This document shows, piece after piece, positions 1,589 through 10,076 of a stretch of 64,000 nt of DNA; the stretch's first letter is position 1; each line of letters opens with the position of its first letter. A program made the translations under genes and the position numbers. The notes beneath the pieces are model-generated. The model searched no databases. It was given only the letters and a program-made list of their open reading frames with translations, and had not been told where the DNA came from. The stretch lies in assembly GCA_005223125.1 (NCBI GenBank), contig NJBH01000010.1, positions 50,220-114,219 on the forward strand. The letters are read 5' to 3'. This DNA comes from Promethearchaeota archaeon Loki_b32. GTDB taxonomy: Archaea > Asgardarchaeota > Lokiarchaeia > Sigyniarchaeales > SOKP01.

Positions 1589-3988
1589 CTAAATGGATTT
1601 CTGTTTACTTTTGAATTTTGTATATAATGCTTTATCTAATAAACGACCAATTTTAATAGCAATTTGATTTCCAATTTCATACCTTTCTCCATCGATTAAA
1701 TTTCTTTTTTGTTCAGCAGTGGGAATTTTTCCCAGTCTCTTCATCAAAGTTTTTTCAATAATATTATTTACAATCTCCATAATTTTCTCGTTATCTGGTA
1801 ATTTAATCTCTGAAGTGAAATTCCTAATTTTTTCCATAGCAAAATTAAAAAATTGGCTGATCAATTCAACTGGATCTCCTCTTAATTCACTATGAAGTTT
1901 TATATTATCAGTAGCTATTTTTGTATCTTTTTCTTGCCAATACAACTGATTTGGATTAATCCCTGGACTATTTATTCTCATTAGGGAACTTGTGATTCTG
2001 CGTTCAATCCAATTTAAAGTACTTAATTCTTGTTCCTCACGGAGTTTTTTAGCTTTTTCTTCTTTTTCTTTCTCTTTAGACTCAATGATGCGTTCTACTT
2101 CTGATTTCCGGATTTCTTCAAACTTTTCAAATCGTTTAATTATATCATATCCTATACAATATGAAATTGGAGATATTAAATCAGATTTCAACTTTAATTG
2201 AGCAATATCTTCATATATTGGACTAGGTTTGTTTTTTAATTCAGAACTTGCTTCTTTTAAAGATATTTCCATGAGTCGTGCTAAAATGAATCCATTAACT
2301 AAAAAGGGTTGGTTATTTGCGTTAAATACAGTAACTAATTCTTCTTGTCTTCTAATTAAACGTTTTATAATCAATTCTTCGAGTTTAATTTTAATCCAAT
2401 CTTCTGAATCAGTAGTTCCATCTATTTTCTTTAATGCTAATAAATATAAAGATCTATCATTAGAAACCTTAAGATATAATTCTATTATCCTACTTAGTTG
2501 TCTCAATATCTTTGATAAAATATAAAAGAAAATATCTTTTGCTAATTCATTTATAATCTCGTCAAACTCTAAAATAAATAATAATTGAGAATAATTTTTT
2601 AATTTTAATTCATCTAAAAAGACTTTATCAATGGCTTGTTTTTTTCTAATGTATTGCCTTAGATTATTTATAGTTATTCCTGTTTTCTCTTCCAAAATTC
2701 TTGGTAAATTCGGATATTTATCAATGTCTTGATTTATAAGGTTTAATAGGCCAAATTCAGAGGTTGCGTTTGATTCATCAACAATATCTCTAAGATCTTG
2801 AAAATTTAACTGAGATAATGCTTTTTTTGCTACAAATATTAAATTCTTTTTATTGTCATTTAAAGATACAATATCGAGTTTCTTAATATTATATCTTACC
2901 ATATTTCTTTTCACTTTTTCTGCAAGATCTTCATCCACATTAAAGAAATGTAAAATATTATACACTCCATATTTTTGTAATGTGTAGATTATATCATCAA
3001 AACCACATTCATTTATACATTGTAAAAAATAGATGAAATCATTTGGATTTTTTTTTAATTTTTTAATTAATACGAATTTTAAAAAGTTTAAAATTTTTAA
3101 TTCGAATTGATCATAATCTATTTTTTCTTTTAGACCATCTTCAATTTTTTTTATTAAGTCTTTTTTTAGGTTATTCGCCTCTATAAATGTATTCAAACCG
3201 GGGATAGATATCGGAAATCGGTCTAAATTGAAATCTAGTACCTTTCTTTTTATCATTCTTACTGGCATTGCTTCAATTTGTAATTCTTTATATGATTTAA
3301 ATTCAAAATCAGTTTGTGTTTTATTGATTAATCGATCTAAAGTTGCTAATTCGATGAATTTATCTTCTTTTTCCTCTAATTCTAATTTCTTCTCTAATTC
3401 AACAGAGATGTCCTTAAAAGCAGCAGTTTCTTCTAATATTTCCTTTTTTATTTTATTACTTAGACCTATCAAATCACCTATTAAATCATAAAAGTAGAAT
3501 GGGGGATAATTCCTTATGATTTCTTGTAACTCTTGTTCAATTTGAACCTCAATGTCTTTAATCATTTGTTCTTTTTGAATCTCTTGGGTTTTTTCATTTC
3601 TTACTTCAATTAAAAAAGATATAAATTTATTCTCTAAATCAATTATCTTATTGAGAAGATTAACTTCTAAATTTAAAGAGTTTTTTAATATTGAGTTAAC
3701 CTCCTCAATTAGGATCTTTTTTTCTGCAATCTCTAAATTTTTAGTGGAATCGAAAGTAAATTTATCCATATCTAAGAGTTTCTGAACTCGAATTCCTAAA
3801 CTGTGATAGATATGAATAGTAGCGGTAGCTATTAACAAATCATTAAAGTTAGTTTTCTGACTAATAAGTTCAAAGATTTTATTTTTATCAGCTTCCCTTT
3901 TAAAATGAGAAATTATTAAATCAACAGTCTGAAAAAATCTAAACGTACTTTCAACTGCTGTTGTTTTTCTTTTTACTCCACTAATCAT
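1589..3988 (-). CDS. Large alpha-helical/coiled-coil hypothetical protein
   Basis: 799-aa ORF; start overlaps upstream gene stop (ATGA); GGGTGAG SD. Confidence 0.75.
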   Translation of the reverse strand: MISGVKRKTTAVESTFRFFQTVDLIISHFKREADKNKIFELISQKTNFNDLLIATATIHIYHSLGIRVQKLLDMDKFTFDSTKNLEIAEKKILIEEVNSILKNSLNLEVNLLNKIIDLENKFISFLIEVRNEKTQEIQKEQMIKDIEVQIEQELQEIIRNYPPFYFYDLIGDLIGLSNKIKKEILEETAAFKDISVELEKKLELEEKEDKFIELATLDRLINKTQTDFEFKSYKELQIEAMPVRMIKRKVLDFNLDRFPISIPGLNTFIEANNLKKDLIKKIEDGLKEKIDYDQFELKILNFLKFVLIKKLKKNPNDFIYFLQCINECGFDDIIYTLQKYGVYNILHFFNVDEDLAEKVKRNMVRYNIKKLDIVSLNDNKKNLIFVAKKALSQLNFQDLRDIVDESNATSEFGLLNLINQDIDKYPNLPRILEEKTGITINNLRQYIRKKQAIDKVFLDELKLKNYSQLLFILEFDEIINELAKDIFFYILSKILRQLSRIIELYLKVSNDRSLYLLALKKIDGTTDSEDWIKIKLEELIIKRLIRRQEELVTVFNANNQPFLVNGFILARLMEISLKEASSELKNKPSPIYEDIAQLKLKSDLISPISYCIGYDIIKRFEKFEEIRKSEVERIIESKEKEKEEKAKKLREEQELSTLNWIERRITSSLMRINSPGINPNQLYWQEKDTKIATDNIKLHSELRGDPVELISQFFNFAMEKIRNFTSEIKLPDNEKIMEIVNNIIEKTLMKRLGKIPTAEQKRNLIDGERYEIGNQIAIKIGRLLDKALYTKFKSKQKSI

Positions 3989-6291
3989 AAATCACTCACC
4001 CATTCTCTATATACTTCTTTAAAATTATTTGATATTTCGAATCTAGCATTATTATGCCAAAATTTAAAATCTATTATGTGAAATAAATCACCCTTAAACT
4101 GTTCTTTTTCTTCATTTGTTAAAATATGCTTTAGTGTTACTGTTAAAGGTCTTGGAATTAATTTTGAAAAATATTTTTGTTCAGTATTTTTAACATAATC
4201 ATAAAATGTCTCAGCCCCATCTAGATTAAAATAATTGAAAGGAAGAGTATTCTCTAATTGTGGATTTAAATTATCTAATTCACTTTTAACATTTATTTTA
4301 ACGTACTTCGGAAATTCGGTATTGATATCAATACTTAGTTCAAATTTTTTATAGAATTCAAATAACAAGTTTTTTTCTTCAGAATCAGTTATTTTTGCTA
4401 TATATACATTCAAAAATTTTAGGAAATTTTCAATTTTTTGTTCATTTAATTCTCTCTCTTCAAAATATCCAATAAAATCATTGTAGACTTCTGTCAATGT
4501 CCATTTTCTTTGTTCTTCCGGTTTTAGATATTTCTTAGAATAATCTTTAATCCAATCAAGAATATAAAATTTCCATTCAAGATTTATACCTCCAATTCTC
4601 TTTTCTAAAAATCTATGAAATCTATTTGAAAAAGTCACAGGATCACTGATTTCTTTATCAGGTTCCTCCTTAATATAGCGATTTATTGTAGAGTGCCTTA
4701 AAACATAGCTTATTAAATAATTTAATTCTCTTGAAAATTTCTTAAATTTATCTATATGAATATTTATTTTATTTATGCTTGTTTCCATCTGGATCTCGGT
4801 AAAAGATACTAAATCATCTATCTTTAATTCAATATCATCAAAGAAAGTATCAATATTTTCATTAATTAAGAAATAAAATTCTTTAATTATCTCTTTTTCA
4901 TTAAATATAAGATTTTTTTCAAGAAGAATTGAATGTGTTTCAATTTGGTTGAAAAGAGATTCTTTAAATTCACTTATTAATTTCTGTCCTAATATTTTTG
5001 CTGGTTTTTGTTCTAAGTTAAATTTTGCATATAAATTATTCATTAATTTTATAGTTAGAGATTTCAATCGACGATAAGAAAGATATTTTGGCAGTGATAT
5101 TTTAACTAAATTAAGACTTTTAGTGATAATTTCTGAAAAATAACTAAAAATAGAACTCAATTCTATAATTCGTAAACTTTCTTTTTGAGTTATTGTTTGT
5201 TCGATAAATCTTTTTGCTATATTACATATATTTTCGAAATCTTCGTTTTCTAATTTTCCTTTACTCAAAATAAAATGAATGTATTTAGTTAGTAATTCGT
5301 TTAAATCCCCCATTTCTCCTGTACTCAGAAAAGCTCTAGAATATTCCAAAAATTTATTTAAATATCCTTGTAAATTAATTATCAATTTATTTACATTAGA
5401 AATTAGCCATTCTGCTGTATGAGCATCACTATATTCATTTATTTTATTGTTAATATTATTAATAATAAAAATTATTATTTCATCTTGGGATTCATCTAAA
5501 GTACCTGTGTTTGCTAAATTGATGAGATTAGTTCCTAAATTTAAAGTTTTATCTACGATAAAATTCGCACTTGGTTCTGATATTGAATACTTAAGATGTT
5601 CAATAGCTTGTTGCCCGCTAAATGGTGTTTTAATCTTTTGAAACTTAGGTTTTGAAAAAATAATCTCCATAGGTTTTTTATACCATAAAATCTCAACATT
5701 AGAGATGACTTTTGCATATGTATTCAACATATCCTTTTCTGTAGGGAGAGTTCTGCTTAAACCAATCAACTTTTTATTCCATTTGTCTTCAATTAGTTCT
5801 CCATAGAGTTTTTTACTAAATCTAGAAGCATATTTGTTATATACTAATTGCTTTTCCTCATTTTTTAATTCTGGTCGATCAGAAAATTCTTCTACCTCAA
5901 AAAATAATTTACTTATGTTATTAAGTGATTCTCTAGATTTATGAATGTCTAATACTCCTGTTTCTGGTTTTAAAGCAAGTAATAAACTTTCACAATCTTT
6001 AAATTTGCCTGGAATAAAAATCATTGATTGAGGGTATATGTTAATTCGAGCACTTTTTTCATCTATATTATATAGTTCAAACTCAATACTAAACAACTCT
6101 GCTCCCGTGTAATCCCGTAATATTGCATTATACATGGTCAAGAATTTAATCACTTCTTGGGCAAGTTCATTTACTCTTTTTCTTGTTAACCTTCCTGGAC
6201 CAATTACATCTCCAGCAATAACATCATTAGGAGACGAATATCCGAATATTATTGAAAATTGGTAACTTATTGATTCGCGTGTTGTTATCAT
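3985..6291 (-). CDS. Large hypothetical protein
   Basis: 768-aa ORF, translationally coupled to 1589..3988. Confidence 0.75.
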   Translation of the reverse strand: MITTRESISYQFSIIFGYSSPNDVIAGDVIGPGRLTRKRVNELAQEVIKFLTMYNAILRDYTGAELFSIEFELYNIDEKSARINIYPQSMIFIPGKFKDCESLLLALKPETGVLDIHKSRESLNNISKLFFEVEEFSDRPELKNEEKQLVYNKYASRFSKKLYGELIEDKWNKKLIGLSRTLPTEKDMLNTYAKVISNVEILWYKKPMEIIFSKPKFQKIKTPFSGQQAIEHLKYSISEPSANFIVDKTLNLGTNLINLANTGTLDESQDEIIIFIINNINNKINEYSDAHTAEWLISNVNKLIINLQGYLNKFLEYSRAFLSTGEMGDLNELLTKYIHFILSKGKLENEDFENICNIAKRFIEQTITQKESLRIIELSSIFSYFSEIITKSLNLVKISLPKYLSYRRLKSLTIKLMNNLYAKFNLEQKPAKILGQKLISEFKESLFNQIETHSILLEKNLIFNEKEIIKEFYFLINENIDTFFDDIELKIDDLVSFTEIQMETSINKINIHIDKFKKFSRELNYLISYVLRHSTINRYIKEEPDKEISDPVTFSNRFHRFLEKRIGGINLEWKFYILDWIKDYSKKYLKPEEQRKWTLTEVYNDFIGYFEERELNEQKIENFLKFLNVYIAKITDSEEKNLLFEFYKKFELSIDINTEFPKYVKINVKSELDNLNPQLENTLPFNYFNLDGAETFYDYVKNTEQKYFSKLIPRPLTVTLKHILTNEEKEQFKGDLFHIIDFKFWHNNARFEISNNFKEVYREWVSDL

Positions 6292-6713
6292 ATTCTAGTT
6301 TCATTAACCATATGTAATTCCTAAATTAATAAATAATTGGTTTTAAATATTTAACCCAACTTTAAAAAAATTAAATGGTTGATTTAAATATTTTTAAGTT
6401 TATAAAGTATTAAAATTTACTTTTGAATTGTATATAAAGTCCTCGTATAAAAATATTATAGTAGGAATGAGATAATTGAAAAAAAAGCTATTTAACAACA
6501 TAATTTTTTTAGATTATGCAAAACTTGAAGTCTGAGAGATATTAAGAATAGAATTTACCGCAAATTTCAAATTTAAGTGAATTTATAAACCTTGATTATT
6601 AATTTCATATTATCAAGAAAGTTCATGTTTTAAAAATAAAAATATAATAAGAAAAAAATTATTATATTTATAATAATAAATATAAAAGCTAAAAGCACTT
6701 AAGGTGTAAGCTT

Positions 6714-7118
6714 ATTCAATTCGGGTCTGATTTAGGAATCAATCAAGAGGATATCGAGAAGATAAGTCCTCAAATTACATTTATTACCTCTAACGCAGAT
6801 ATTGAAGCGATTGCGCTTGTAAGTTTTGAAGGATATCAAATTGCTTTCTCTGCTTTACCACAATATCATGTTGATGGGGACCAATTTTGCGGGCTTGCTA
6901 GCGCATTATTAATGACAGGTAGATCTACAATTCAAACTGTATTTCAAGAAGATCTAAGTGAAATAATAGTAAGAGCTGAAAATGGATATATTATTATTAC
7001 AAATGCGGGAAGGTTAGTAATTGTTTGTGCTGGGACTATAATTGATACCCTAATGAAGACTGTAAAAGTTATGAGAATAGCGGCGAAAAACCTCTATAAA
7101 ATTTTTGAAAGCCGTTAA
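6714..7118 (+). CDS. Roadblock/LC7 (MglB-like) protein; proposed ATT start
   Basis: Frame open from 6693; upstream of ATG6912 reads IEAIALVSFEGYQIAFSA..DGDQFCGLASALL, the roadblock N-half; AAGGTG SD at 6701-6706. Confidence 0.75.
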   Translation: MQFGSDLGINQEDIEKISPQITFITSNADIEAIALVSFEGYQIAFSALPQYHVDGDQFCGLASALLMTGRSTIQTVFQEDLSEIIVRAENGYIIITNAGRLVIVCAGTIIDTLMKTVKVMRIAAKNLYKIFESR

Positions 7119-7281
7119 ATTTAATTATTCATTTTAGTTCCTTTAAAATTCTTGTCTAAGTTTAATTCTAAAGAAAAAATTTTGAATATTCAAACTATTT
7201 TTACCAAATAACAATAGATTTTTATTTATTAATGTATGTATAATTGAAATAAAATAAAGAATTAGTTATTTTTTTGTTATA

Positions 7282-7332
7282 ATGGCAACTGTAAAAAATA
7301 TCACTTGGCAGTGGCCTTGGCGTTGGCAATAG
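7282..7332 (+). CDS. Trp-rich leader peptide MATVKNITWQWPWRWQ (trpL-like)
   Basis: ATG..TAG with four TGG among codons 9-15, 150 nt upstream of trpB2. Confidence 0.8.
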   Translation: MATVKNITWQWPWRWQ

Positions 7333-7388
7333 AGCCAATTGCAATGGAGTTTACTTAAATTTATTTTTTCATTTTAATATTTTTTCTT
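7308..7388 (+). promoter_or_regulatory. Putative attenuator: alternative stems plus U-rich tract
   Basis: TTGGC(7323-27)/GCCAA(7334-38) hairpin competes with GCAGTGGC(7308-15)/GCCAATTGC(7334-42); T-rich tract 7360-7388. Confidence 0.5.
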
Positions 7389-7482
7389 TAAATATTAAAA
7401 CCTCTTTCTAAATGAGCATTAATCATATTGGTCTCCAATATTTTAATGATACACATCTTAAGATGTGAAAAAATGATTAAAA

Positions 7483-8898
7483 ATGGGAACCAAAATGATG
7501 GATTATTATAACGGTAGAATTTTATTACAACCAAATGAAATTCCAAAAGAGTGGGTGAATATTTTACCAGATTTACCCTCATCTATGACGCCCTTGATAA
7601 ACCCAATGGATGGGAAGCCAGTTCCACCAGAAATGGCATTCGCTATATTTCCTAAAGAATGTGTTTTACAGGAAGTTTCGCAAGAACCTACTATTCCTAT
7701 TCCTAATGAATTAAGGGAATTTTTTGCTAAAACTTATCGACCAAGTCCACTCCACCGTGCTTTGGGATTAGAAAAAGACTTAGGATTAGAAGGAGATAAA
7801 ATAAAGATTTTTTATAAAAATGAATCTGTATCTCCAACTGGATCACACAAACCAAATACGGCAATAACCCAAGCATTTTATGCGAAAAAGGAAGGAACGG
7901 AAGAATTAGTCACCGAGACGGGAGCAGGGCAATGGGGTTCCGGATTGGCATATGGATGCAATTTATACGAACTTAAATGCACTGTATATATGGTAAGAGC
8001 GAGTTTTATCCAAAAACCAGGAAGAAAAATTCTTATGAGAATTTATAATGCTGAAGTACATGCAAGTCCTTCTAAATTTACTGAATCTGGAAGAAAATTT
8101 TTAGAAGAGGATCCAGAGCATGATGGAAGTTTAGGTATTGCTATATCTGAAGCATTAGAACATAGTATGCGAAGTGATAAAATTAAATACTCTCTTGGAA
8201 GTGTAGTCAATTTTGTTCTTCTACATCAAACTATTATAGGACAAGAAGCAAAAATGCAACTAGCGAAAATAGGTATTGAAAAGCCCGATATTGTAATTGG
8301 ATGCATGGGAGGAGGATCTAATTTTTCAGGTTTAATGATTCCATTTGTAAAAGATAAAATCAATGGCGTTCATCCAGATATAGAAATAATCGGTGCAGAA
8401 CCCCGTGCTTGTCCAAGTATTTGTAAGGGAGAATATAGATGGGATTATGGAGATACAGCTATGAAAGGCCCTATTGTAAAGATGCATACATTAGGACATA
8501 CCTTTATACCAACTCCAATCCATGCAGGAGGATTAAGATATCACGGAATGGCACCAATAGTCTCAATATTATACAACAATAAATTAATTAAAGCAACAAT
8601 GCATCATCAAACAGAAGTTATAAGAGCGGGAATTAAATTTACTCATACTGAAGGAATAATTCCCGCCCCAGAATCTGCTCATGCTATAAAAGAAGCAATT
8701 GATCAAGCTTTAAAAGCTAAAGAAAATAATGAAAAGAAAGTCATTCTATTCAATCTCAGTGGTCATGGCTTTTTTGATTTATTAGCTTATAAAGAATATA
8801 TGACTGGAAATCTTGTGGATTATGAATTGCCTACTGAAGAAATTCAGAAAGCCTTAGCTTCTATTGAGATGCCAAAAATCGACGATACTCAATTTTAA
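7483..8898 (+). CDS. trpB2: Tryptophan synthase beta chain, type 2
   Basis: SPTGSHKPNTA (PLP lysine), TETGAGQWG, GGGSNF, HAGGLRYHG, PAPESAHA, FNLSGHG. Confidence 0.95.
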   Translation: MGTKMMDYYNGRILLQPNEIPKEWVNILPDLPSSMTPLINPMDGKPVPPEMAFAIFPKECVLQEVSQEPTIPIPNELREFFAKTYRPSPLHRALGLEKDLGLEGDKIKIFYKNESVSPTGSHKPNTAITQAFYAKKEGTEELVTETGAGQWGSGLAYGCNLYELKCTVYMVRASFIQKPGRKILMRIYNAEVHASPSKFTESGRKFLEEDPEHDGSLGIAISEALEHSMRSDKIKYSLGSVVNFVLLHQTIIGQEAKMQLAKIGIEKPDIVIGCMGGGSNFSGLMIPFVKDKINGVHPDIEIIGAEPRACPSICKGEYRWDYGDTAMKGPIVKMHTLGHTFIPTPIHAGGLRYHGMAPIVSILYNNKLIKATMHHQTEVIRAGIKFTHTEGIIPAPESAHAIKEAIDQALKAKENNEKKVILFNLSGHGFFDLLAYKEYMTGNLVDYELPTEEIQKALASIEMPKIDDTQF

Positions 8899-9005
8899 AT
8901 TAAATTTTACTTCGCTTTTTTTTTTAATAAACATTACCAATCAACGAGAAAATCTTAAAATCAAAGAATCTTTTAAATAGTAAAACCTCTTGAGATTGGC
9001 TGTTA

Positions 9006-10076
9006 TTGAACGTTCTTTCAATACTAATTTTGAGTATTTTATATTCTTATGGAATTATACTTCTTTATATAACCTATTTGGCGAGAAAGAAACGAGAAAT
9101 GGGTGCATTTACCAATAATTTAGCTAATGCTATAATTCTAATAATTTCAATTACAATTAATGTTATTTTGATTACAGTTTTTAATCTTTCAGACGAAGAG
9201 TTCATAATTTTTCCTTTCAATGCTTTAATGATTGGATTTGTTATAGTTTTTTTTCCTTTGTTTTTTCTTTTTGTTAGACGTGAGAATATAAAAATAAAAA
9301 AACACATAGAGAACTCAAATAAGACTGAAATTCAATCGTTAAAAGAATTACCTCTTAAATATGATATTTATAGAAAATTAACTCATTTAGTGGCGCTAGG
9401 AGTAATTTTCTTCTATTTTACTCTTGGATTTTTAATCCAAAATGTATTTGTGGATCTACTAGAATTTATTCCAGGATTCATTTCCAGAATATTTCAAATT
9501 GGAGGTGATATTATGATCTTTACTCAAAATTTAGTTGTATTTTTAGTTGGAATTTCATTAATTGGATTATTAACAGCGGATATTGTAAGAATATTAGCAC
9601 CAAAGATATATCCTTTGAAGCAAGTCAATCAAATACTACGAGAAAAAGAATTACATTTAAGGTTAGGACCTCATATTTCTATGGGGATTGGATGTTTTTC
9701 AATCATTTTGCTATATGGTTTAATTCAACCGATAGGGCCTGTATTAATTTGTACTTCGATGGCAATGTCTATTTTTGGAGATACATCGTCTAATTTAGTC
9801 GGTAGGATGATAGGGCGTAGAAAAATTAGGAAAATAAACAAAACTTATGAGGGATTAGTTGCTGGCATTATTGTCTCCTTTTTCTCTGGAATCTCAGTAT
9901 TATATCTACTAAGAAATTTTTATAGTTTCAATATTTTAGGATTGTTATTAATTCCTTTTATAGGAGCAATGATTATTGGTTTATTGGATTATATAGACTT
10001 AGAGATTGATGACAATCTATCTTTTAACTTCTGTTTGTCAACAATATTCTTTACTATTTCGGTTTCATTTTTTTGA
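9006..10076 (+). CDS. CTP-dependent polyprenol (dolichol/phytol/DAG) kinase family membrane protein
   Basis: RKLTH, LREKE, GD..S..VG..G, KTYEG, IDDN motifs. Confidence 0.8.
   Translation: MNVLSILILSILYSYGIILLYITYLARKKREMGAFTNNLANAIILIISITINVILITVFNLSDEEFIIFPFNALMIGFVIVFFPLFFLFVRRENIKIKKHIENSNKTEIQSLKELPLKYDIYRKLTHLVALGVIFFYFTLGFLIQNVFVDLLEFIPGFISRIFQIGGDIMIFTQNLVVFLVGISLIGLLTADIVRILAPKIYPLKQVNQILREKELHLRLGPHISMGIGCFSIILLYGLIQPIGPVLICTSMAMSIFGDTSSNLVGRMIGRRKIRKINKTYEGLVAGIIVSFFSGISVLYLLRNFYSFNILGLLLIPFIGAMIIGLLDYIDLEIDDNLSFNFCLSTIFFTISVSFF

Follow-up and report, generated by a model that had tools for sequence, protein, structure and literature searches.

The closest described relatives of the locus considered here are the bacterial trpL-type attenuators, the amino-acid-rich short open reading frames (sORFs) of actinobacteria and mycobacteria, TnaC of the Escherichia coli tna operon and, within the archaea, the TrpY-type DNA-binding repressor of Methanothermobacter, whose action at the promoter is the published mode of tryptophan-dependent archaeal trp control. 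TnaC senses free tryptophan, needs residues W12, D16 and P24, and controls a tryptophan-degrading enzyme through Rho. The output of the actinobacterial and mycobacterial leaders is not always a classical terminator/antiterminator pair (PMC1262725; bioRxiv 10.1101/834739), and the mycobacterial polycysteine sORFs, which are leaderless, affect translation or transcription of the operon (bioRxiv 10.1101/834739). According to a primary paper of 2021, archaea have no known mechanism of transcription attenuation or antitermination (PMC8448881), and functional evidence for archaeal transcription–translation coupling is scarce (PMC13681488, 2025). Our literature search returned no paper joining Asgard archaea with trpB2, and none on Asgard or archaeal leader-peptide attenuation. 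The locus presented here lies in Promethearchaeota archaeon Loki_b32 (contig NJBH01000010.1), where an sORF with four alternating tryptophan codons, at 7282-7332, precedes trpB2; coordinates refer to the window, that is, the whole stretch of 64,000 nucleotides (nt) that was analysed. The sORF likely acts in cis as a regulatory leader peptide that gauges charged tRNA-Trp via the ribosome. Leader-peptide control is a known logic, of the bacterial trpL type, here met in a new domain of life.

A tryptophan-codon cluster ahead of trpB2

The leader sORF comprises 16 codons (15 sense codons and TAG) by direct reading, with which the genome coordinates agree, and its codons run ATG GCA ACT GTA AAA AAT ATC ACT TGG CAG TGG CCT TGG CGT TGG CAA TAG. 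The features of the leader and of the gene that follows it are:

7282 to 7332, forward strand: leader sORF, peptide MATVKNITWQWPWRWQ followed by stop; TGG at 7306, 7312, 7318 and 7324; stop TAG at 7330-7332
7485 to 7487, forward strand: Shine-Dalgarno-like GG(G/T) of trpB2; the GG is invariant, 8-10 nt 5' of the conserved ATG
7495 to 8898, forward strand: trpB2, a TrpB-like pyridoxal phosphate enzyme, 467 residues from the conserved start; NF009057 642 bits, TIGR01415 588 bits
8916 to 8925, forward strand: T10 run past the trpB2 stop, by direct reading; probable end of the trpB2 transcript

A preliminary description drawn from the letters alone had claimed a 16-codon reading frame with four alternate TGG codons, unlikely by chance and directly 5' of a tryptophan synthase gene. 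All of this was borne out: the reading matches at 7282-7332, the downstream gene encodes a TrpB2-type enzyme by NF009057, and chance was examined against the whole host genome (4.13 Mb, 29.9% GC, 95.5% complete). There the leader ranks first in tryptophan density among 44,770 ATG-initiated sORFs of 8-40 codons; tryptophan takes up four of its 16 codons, compared with 1.03% of residues in the long open reading frames (ORFs), and at the genomic TGG frequency at least four TGG among 15 codons would be expected with a chance of about 2e-5. The pattern W-x-W-x-W occurs in just five genomic sORFs of up to 45 codons, of which the leader is the sole intergenic one, the other four being out of frame within long ORFs. 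A chance origin of the tryptophan-codon cluster is excluded.

The first ATG of trpB2 is at 7483; since most orthologues have an in-frame stop ahead of it (28 same-genus sequences aligned), the real start is the ATG at 7495, to which the gap from the leader is counted as 163 nt. The gene upstream of the leader lies on the same strand and ends at 7118. Between the two stands one further feature:

7219 to 7228, forward strand: TATA-like box TTTTTATTTA, with invariant columns in 28 same-genus loci; putative promoter

Within the 100 nt 5' of the leader, TTTTTA (7219-7224), some 60 nt away from the leader ATG, makes up the sole invariant columns of these loci, and the box is probably the promoter of a leader-trpB2 transcript. 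As the sole invariant box upstream of the leader, it argues that leader and trpB2 share one predicted transcript. This bears on a question raised in the preliminary description, namely a start site of trpB2's own downstream of the leader: the only invariant TATA-like box sits upstream. The TATA-looking ATTTTAAT at 7440-7447 forms one strand of the covarying helix P3 described below, so that its conservation needs no promoter role, and between leader and P3 no conserved box was found outside the genus. A sigma-70 promoter and terminator scan was uninformative, the host being archaeal.

Evolutionary constraint on the leader

Close TrpB2 orthologues (80-90% identity) are found in metagenome-assembled Promethearchaeota or Promethearchaeia genomes, in keeping with the Asgard host claimed earlier. 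The leader was present at all 29 same-genus TrpB2 loci retrieved, as an ATG-initiated sORF ending 130-165 nt 5' of trpB2, with the core W-Q-W-P-W-x-W and with differing N-termini (MATV, MPII, MTLAKNL and MIKWFNFMATGNY, among the beginnings seen). Other genera of the same family (f1) carry WRWQWAWRWCR, WHWHWRC, WAWHWLWR, WRWQWQWR, WRWHWHWCF and WQWRWRWI. Farther out, in five families of the same class (f2, f3, f4, f5 and f7) and three outside it (f28, f33 and f18), the sORFs end in W-x-W, one to three codons and a stop; the residues before the stop are TWPWH, WAWH, WAWRP, NWAWPRRE, FWRWQWCWRWQ and IWPWNN within the class and SWHPWRSWRWQ, GWPWRGPWQ and FWWHWF outside it. The shared design is thus (W-x)n, then one to three codons, then stop, while peptide length among relatives ranges from 13 to about 70 residues. 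The comparison upstream of trpB2 and trp genes proposed in the preliminary description therefore came out in favour of the leader, the tryptophan-codon ORF being kept in the genus, the family, the class and several other Asgard families as the rest drifts.

Translation of the frame was judged on the 67 family sequences. An in-frame ATG without an intervening stop is kept in 63 of them and the remaining four use TTG or GTG, whereas for the antisense P-x-P frame, whose extent varies, an ATG occurs in just 23 of these sequences. On account of this difference the leader frame appears to be selected as a translated ORF and is not a mere nucleotide motif; the antisense proline-rich ORF was rejected for its non-conservation. 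The codons after TGG prefer an initial C, which gives TGGC repeats each able to pair with GCCAA; the sensing of hungry codons would not by itself account for this preference.

At about 20 non-Asgard TrpB2 loci (Chloroflexota, Bacillota, Methanomethylicia and others) no such sORF was seen at comparable distance; three non-Asgard loci do have W-x-W sORFs, but 600-800 nt upstream. The tryptophan-rich leader was also absent from the 700 nt 5' of trpE in 28 Asgard loci.

In one sister-genus genome (G241:C50, loci L145 and L146) trpB2 occurs twice, with 15 kb between the copies and one on either strand; each copy has a tryptophan leader to itself, and the two leaders are of different subtypes, ending in FWQWPWSWL and FWRWQWPWRF.

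Folding of the leader RNA

Helices P0-P4 were specified by hand, since RNAalifold on raw MAFFT alignments gave only parts of P1 and P3, and their pairs were counted on the 67-sequence family alignment (A2). The predicted elements are:

7284 to 7316, forward strand: P0, GGCAACTG (7284-7291, start region) pairing with CAGTGGCC (7309-7316, codons W9-P12)
7323 to 7338, forward strand: P1 hairpin, TTGGC (last Trp codon) pairing with GCCAA, stop codon in the loop
7342 to 7348, forward strand: motif CA(A/T)TGGA, near-invariant, right 3' of P1
7360 to 7369, forward strand: T-rich tract TTTATTTTTT, with T6 at 7364-7369; candidate termination site
7373 to 7399, forward strand: P2, a hairpin of A and U only, TTTAATATTT...AAATATTAAA; in the predicted fold, clear within the genus only
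7411 to 7456, forward strand: P3 element (46 nt), with a helix at 7417-7448, a conserved loop and ACAC past the helix
7452 to 7467, forward strand: P4 hairpin CACATC-TTAA-GATGTG, with compensatory CG↔UA changes in 5 of 6 pairs

Taken as a set, P0-P4 have 76% of alignment cells paired, as against 71.3% in column shuffles (none of 500 reached 76%) and 34-47% with slid partners. P3 is the best-supported helix of this predicted set: its stems, outer CATTAA/TTAATG and inner ATATTG/CAATAT, have 87% of cells paired and changes on both sides in 9 of 12 pairs, and the wobble paths AU→GU→GC and UA→UG→CG suggest that it is an RNA helix and not a DNA palindrome. P1 links the last tryptophan codon or codons to the bases right after the stop, which lies in the loop or the 3' arm. 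Its arms are TTGGC/GCCAA, GGCGT/ACGCC, GGTCTT/AAGACC, GGCATT/AATGCC, TGGCG/CGCCA, GGCTTT/AAAGCC or GTGGC/GCCAC according to lineage, so that pairing is kept despite differing sequence, with changes on both sides in 4 of 5 pairs. The RNA-folding check suggested in the preliminary description thus yields a predicted hairpin over the last tryptophan codons and the stop, its sequence changing by lineage. P2 has 68-72% of cells paired with changes on both sides in 9 of 10 pairs, and P4 is paired in only 58% of cells family-wide. P0, which is in the minimum-free-energy fold, has 79.6% of cells paired over the 67 sequences and changes on both sides in 2 of 7 pairs, which argues but weakly for a real helix.

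The near-invariant CA(A/T)TGGA has two complements. One is TCCAAT (7434-7439), which belongs to the P3 loop and 3' arm and gives pairing in 83% of cells without covariation; the other is CAGTG of the leader. As both motifs barely vary, covariation neither backs nor refutes the CAUUGGA:UCCAAU pairing. P1 might be lengthened by CAGUG:CAUUG, whose strands are complementary in 25 of the 67 sequences, and the alternative pairing GCCAA:AUUGG is likewise complementary; neither covaries. Two further candidates were discarded, a GCCAAU-UGC-AUUGG hairpin whose pairing falls below shuffles and an anti-Shine-Dalgarno pairing UUUCC:GGUAA that is too weak, with a central U·U mismatch. The claim of mutually exclusive stems over the tryptophan codons and stop accordingly holds for the stems, while for their exclusivity there are candidate alternative pairings, all without covariation. 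The U-rich tract claimed after the stems is there, as the T6 at 7364-7369 within a region (7333-7410) of 50% T, and a T run of at least five within 90 nt of the leader stop occurs in 85% of family sequences, modestly above chance for AT-rich DNA. An Rfam scan of 6000-7800 returned nothing relevant, with no family match even at E ≤10.

Sister family f2, of the same order and including three complete genomes of 4.3-6.0 Mb, folds differently. Its leader ends W-P-W-H-stop and is directly followed by a hairpin of 7-12 base pairs, GCTCTAR...YTAGAGC, whose 5' arm encloses the stop or starts there; then comes GTTCGGTTTTT, with a T4-5 run 7-9 nt past the hairpin. The stop covaries between TAG and TAA with CTA and TTA in the 3' arm (5 A-U and 4 G-C pairs). 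The hairpin is shaped like a bacterial intrinsic terminator and sits where a ribosome stalled at the last tryptophan codon would keep it from closing.

The same module before the trp operon

The link to tryptophan was examined beyond trpB2, at the trp operons. In the 95.5%-complete host genome no match was found to trpA (TIGR00262), to the trpE chorismate-binding domain (PF00425) or to canonical trpB (trpB1), and TrpB2 is therefore the sole tryptophan-forming enzyme found there; presumably it salvages scavenged indole into tryptophan. In sister genomes, the operon trpD-trpC-trpF-trpB-trpA is preceded by the full module of tryptophan-rich sORF, P1, CATTGG, P3 and P4:

L239:2059-2560, L244:409-930, L240, L241, L242, L243 and L245: operon modules in sister genomes

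The module stands at seven of eight sister loci, the eighth being cut by a contig end. Its sORFs read MATEKIILFRWQWLWRA, MSTVKIFSWRWQCWWRV and MAPENNSFWRWQWPWRWQ, with further ones ending in WFWAWRWRA, WIWAWRWHA and WFWDWPWHA and one degenerate, GWQMPWRY. A covariance model built from P3 (R1) had a single match in the host genome, at the trpB2 leader with 64 bits (next-best 25 bits), and scored 58, 41 and 40 bits on three trp-operon leader loci; it had no match in five genomes of other families (three complete f2, one f4 and one f7). The operon leader sits before trpD or a small ORF and not directly before trpE. Two different tryptophan-biosynthetic transcription units thus share one cis module, and the tryptophan link put forward earlier extends to both.

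Two genera (g21 and g22, two genomes) have the module at the operon and none before trpB2. Within the family, the trpB2 leader is missing in 5 of 11 trpE-positive and in 0 of 39 trpE-negative genomes, a difference with a Fisher p of 2e-4 that rests on about three independent losses among genomes that are related and not independent. The module is kept without exception where TrpB2 is the only tryptophan route.

The small ORF between module and trpD, of about 80-95 codons, was seen in at least G195 and G198 and possibly in G018, and contains MLGPEK(T/N)K(A/T)A.

An isoleucine counterpart

Scanning of the host genome for intergenic sORFs rich in one residue brought up a second candidate leader, outside the window:

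G000:C49:49099-49173 (locus L202:100-174), forward strand: Ile-rich sORF, peptide MNKNTKFLGFTQNMIKIISTIIII followed by stop

It lies 164 nt 5' of a 953-residue isoleucyl-tRNA synthetase (IleRS) paralogue (TIGR00392, 817 bits). All 17 same-genus orthologues have an sORF of this type, ending I-I-I-(I/R/G)-stop 143-168 nt upstream, and the isoleucine codons fall within the 5' strand of a predicted long hairpin that is followed by T-runs. The sORF is a candidate isoleucine-sensing leader by these features, and its place before an ileS paralogue suggests that the leader design is not peculiar to tryptophan.

Many same-genus genomes have two IleRS genes, of about 1048 and about 955 residues and about 35% identical. 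The isoleucine leader occurs only at the type of about 955 residues, and the host genome has just the 953-residue type above threshold.

From the same genome, His-rich (MHSHSHHKKT), Cys-rich and Phe-rich sORFs were rejected as leaders, having no matching genes downstream, and no polycysteine leader before cysteine synthase was seen.

Proposed mode of action and competing explanations

The following course of events is proposed. Transcription would start at the TATA-like box near 7219, and ribosomes would translate the 16-codon leader. When tryptophan is scarce, the ribosome would stall on the alternating UGG codons, which are part of the 5' strand of P1, and of the longer P1 that may form, and would thereby hold P1 open, letting expression run on into trpB2. 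When tryptophan is ample, the ribosome would reach the stop and leave, P1 could form and trpB2 expression would be lowered, most likely via premature termination in the U-rich tract at 7360-7390. Premature transcription termination, rather than an effect on translation, is the most likely output, because the f2 version is terminator-shaped and the position of the T-rich tract is conserved in the genus. The response may run from low tryptophan to more trpB2, and P3 and CAUUGGA may take part in it. The predictions of tryptophan sensing by a ribosome-read leader that could be tested in silico have held, in the conserved tryptophan codons, the hairpin at the stop, the upstream box and the operon module. 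Whether the Asgard archaea possess a whole family of true ribosome-mediated transcription attenuators, with tryptophan leaders at trpB2 and the trp operon, isoleucine leaders at the ileS paralogue, and a stalled ribosome blocking hairpin-assisted termination, is a broader proposition that we advance tentatively, as possible and slightly short of an even bet.

Several points weigh against attenuation by a ribosome reading the leader. The genomes of the relatives are not independent, so that the conservation counts overstate their support. The sensing of hungry codons alone would call neither for so strict a W-x-W spacing nor for a Q and a P that hardly vary in the genus. A hairpin enclosing the stop occurs in 95% of leaders and also in 66-78% of control sORFs, and is hence a weak discriminator. 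The candidate pairings include neither a covarying antiterminator nor a covarying pair of mutually exclusive stems. In the window's family the T6 run lies about 25 nt past P1, unlike the arrangement in a bacterial intrinsic terminator, and T-runs are common anyway in DNA with 50% T. The Shine-Dalgarno (SD) sequence and AUG of trpB2 were predicted to be equally accessible with and without a ribosome masking the leader. Archaeal termination at oligo-T is not known to need a hairpin through which a ribosome could modulate it.

The rival that survives best keeps the sensor and changes the output. The position of the ribosome would refold the 5' untranslated region (UTR) with CAUUGGA, P3 and P4 and so act on trpB2 translation initiation or mRNA stability, in the manner of ermC-type translational attenuation. 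P3, the best conserved and covarying element, lies right before the SD and AUG at both trpB2 and the trp operon, and in the window sequence an alternative pairing of the P3 region with that around the SD and AUG is available; the complementarity of CAUUGGA to UCCAAU in P3 (83% of cells) points the same way. The latter pairing shows no covariation, however, the anti-SD pairing UUUCC:GGUAA is weak with its central U·U mismatch, and SD accessibility was predicted to be the same with the ribosome masked in. Family f2, moreover, has a terminator-shaped hairpin and T-run right at the leader stop, and no P3. Control through refolding of the 5' UTR is on balance less likely than not, though a serious contender.

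A sensor of another kind would be an arrest peptide resembling TnaC, in which the nascent W-x-W-x-W, while in the exit tunnel, would detect free tryptophan or indole, so that the ribosome stalls at the stop and trpB2 is ligand-induced. The strictly alternating W and the WQWPW that is near-invariant in the genus suggest constraint beyond codon identity, and the tryptophan run always ends one to three codons ahead of the stop. Across genera, however, the residues between and after the tryptophans vary (Q, P, R, A, H, L, C and S), and the final codon specifies Q, R, H, A, F or L and never a conserved Pro. Induction by tryptophan would be illogical because the genes controlled (trpB2, trpDCFBA) make tryptophan, and the isoleucine leader before ileS has the same design with another residue. 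Arrest by the nascent peptide is accordingly improbable.

It is just as implausible that the ORF is incidental and that the bases are conserved for their recognition, as RNA or DNA, by a protein or a tRNA, in the way of an operator or a T-box-like element. The TGGC repeats, GCCAA and CATTGGA are indeed conserved as nucleotides with few synonymous changes (CAA, CCC and CCA once each), and UUGGA could pair with the tRNA-Trp anticodon loop; yet the in-frame ATG with no stop between is kept in 63 of 67 sequences despite a variable N-terminus and DNA of about 25% GC, the stop always falls one to three codons past the last W in distant families that differ in nucleotide sequence, and no Rfam family matches even at E ≤10. 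Least credible, to the point of being nearly negligible, is a free-standing tryptophan-rich micropeptide whose own transcript ends at the T-tract, with the trpB2 promoter in 7372-7410: the T6 run after the sORF and the AT-rich P2 region (TTTTAATATT), which could act as a TATA box, would suit it, but the N-terminal half is unconstrained, the length ranges from 13 to about 70 residues, the leader-P3 interval has no conserved box outside the genus, and the sORF is always tied to tryptophan genes in two gene contexts and lost where the downstream RNA module is lost.

Implications

Should the broader proposition of a family of Asgard transcription attenuators be true, it would be the first attenuation mechanism in Archaea and would give direct functional evidence of regulatory transcription–translation coupling in those prokaryotes that stand nearest to the eukaryotes, with the lineage-specific accessory RNA P3 as an extra layer of control. 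The module suggests a way in which a tryptophan auxotroph tunes indole salvage, and leader-peptide sensing could have an earlier origin or a wider spread than one would gather from bacteria. Being conserved and specific to tryptophan genes, the module is a concrete and easily mutated test case; cultured Asgard strains probably have the f2-type leader, if the three complete f2 genomes are those of cultured strains.

Neighbouring genes

On the 3' side of trpB2 the T10 run at 8916-8925 separates it from a gene that adjoins it throughout the genus, and two large ORFs lie upstream:

9006 to 10076, forward strand: 356-residue multi-pass membrane protein, without Pfam or NCBIfam match
3985 to 6291, reverse strand: ORF of 768 residues, without Pfam or NCBIfam match
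1589 to 3988, reverse strand: ORF of 799 residues, without Pfam or NCBIfam match

The membrane protein has a GDTSSNLVGRMIGRRK motif that we take to be reminiscent of CdsA or dolichol-kinase-type cytidylyltransferases.

Relation to described regulators

In its general plan the Asgard leader resembles trpL (Rfam RF00513, Trp_leader) and the bacterial his, leu, thr, ilv, pheA and pheST attenuators. In all of them a short same-strand ORF lies just 5' of the biosynthesis genes for one amino acid, the codons for the regulated amino acid are enriched near its 3' end inside a hairpin strand, a U-rich tract lies ahead of the structural gene and the peptide is otherwise unconstrained. Three hallmarks of a leader-peptide attenuator are found here, namely an upstream same-strand ORF, local codon enrichment, and conservation of the ORF and its regulatory codons while others drift. 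The differences from trpL begin with the host, which is archaeal, with an archaeal RNA polymerase and no Rho, and with the RF00513 covariance model, which gives no match (6000-7800, E ≤10). The Asgard tryptophan codons alternate as (W-x)n where those of trpL are adjacent; in the window's family no covarying antiterminator was found, the T-run stands apart from the hairpin, and an extra hairpin, P3, precedes the SD. The module here would govern a stand-alone trpB2, moreover, in a genome that lacks the remainder of the pathway.

The actinobacterial and mycobacterial leader sORFs (PMC1262725; bioRxiv 10.1101/834739) offer a likeness in kind, being conserved amino-acid-rich sORFs before matching biosynthetic genes that were recognised by comparative genomics. 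Unlike the leaderless mycobacterial sORFs, the Asgard leader would, to judge by the position of the TATA-like box, have a 5' UTR of about 30 nt; it also has an RNA structure of its own downstream.

With TnaC the Asgard element has in common a short tryptophan-containing leader, and in TnaC it is ribosome occupancy near the stop that decides downstream transcription. Unlike in TnaC, the flanking residues vary in the Asgard leaders, the last residue is not Pro and the controlled genes make tryptophan; the W...D...P-stop pattern with a tryptophanase downstream is absent, the downstream genes being trpB2 or trpDCFBA. A T-box riboswitch finds no Rfam match here, and UUGGA, which might pair with the tRNA-Trp anticodon loop, is the sole feature recalling one. 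Unlike TrpY, the Asgard element needs no protein sensor, and its conserved parts behave as translated or folded RNA.

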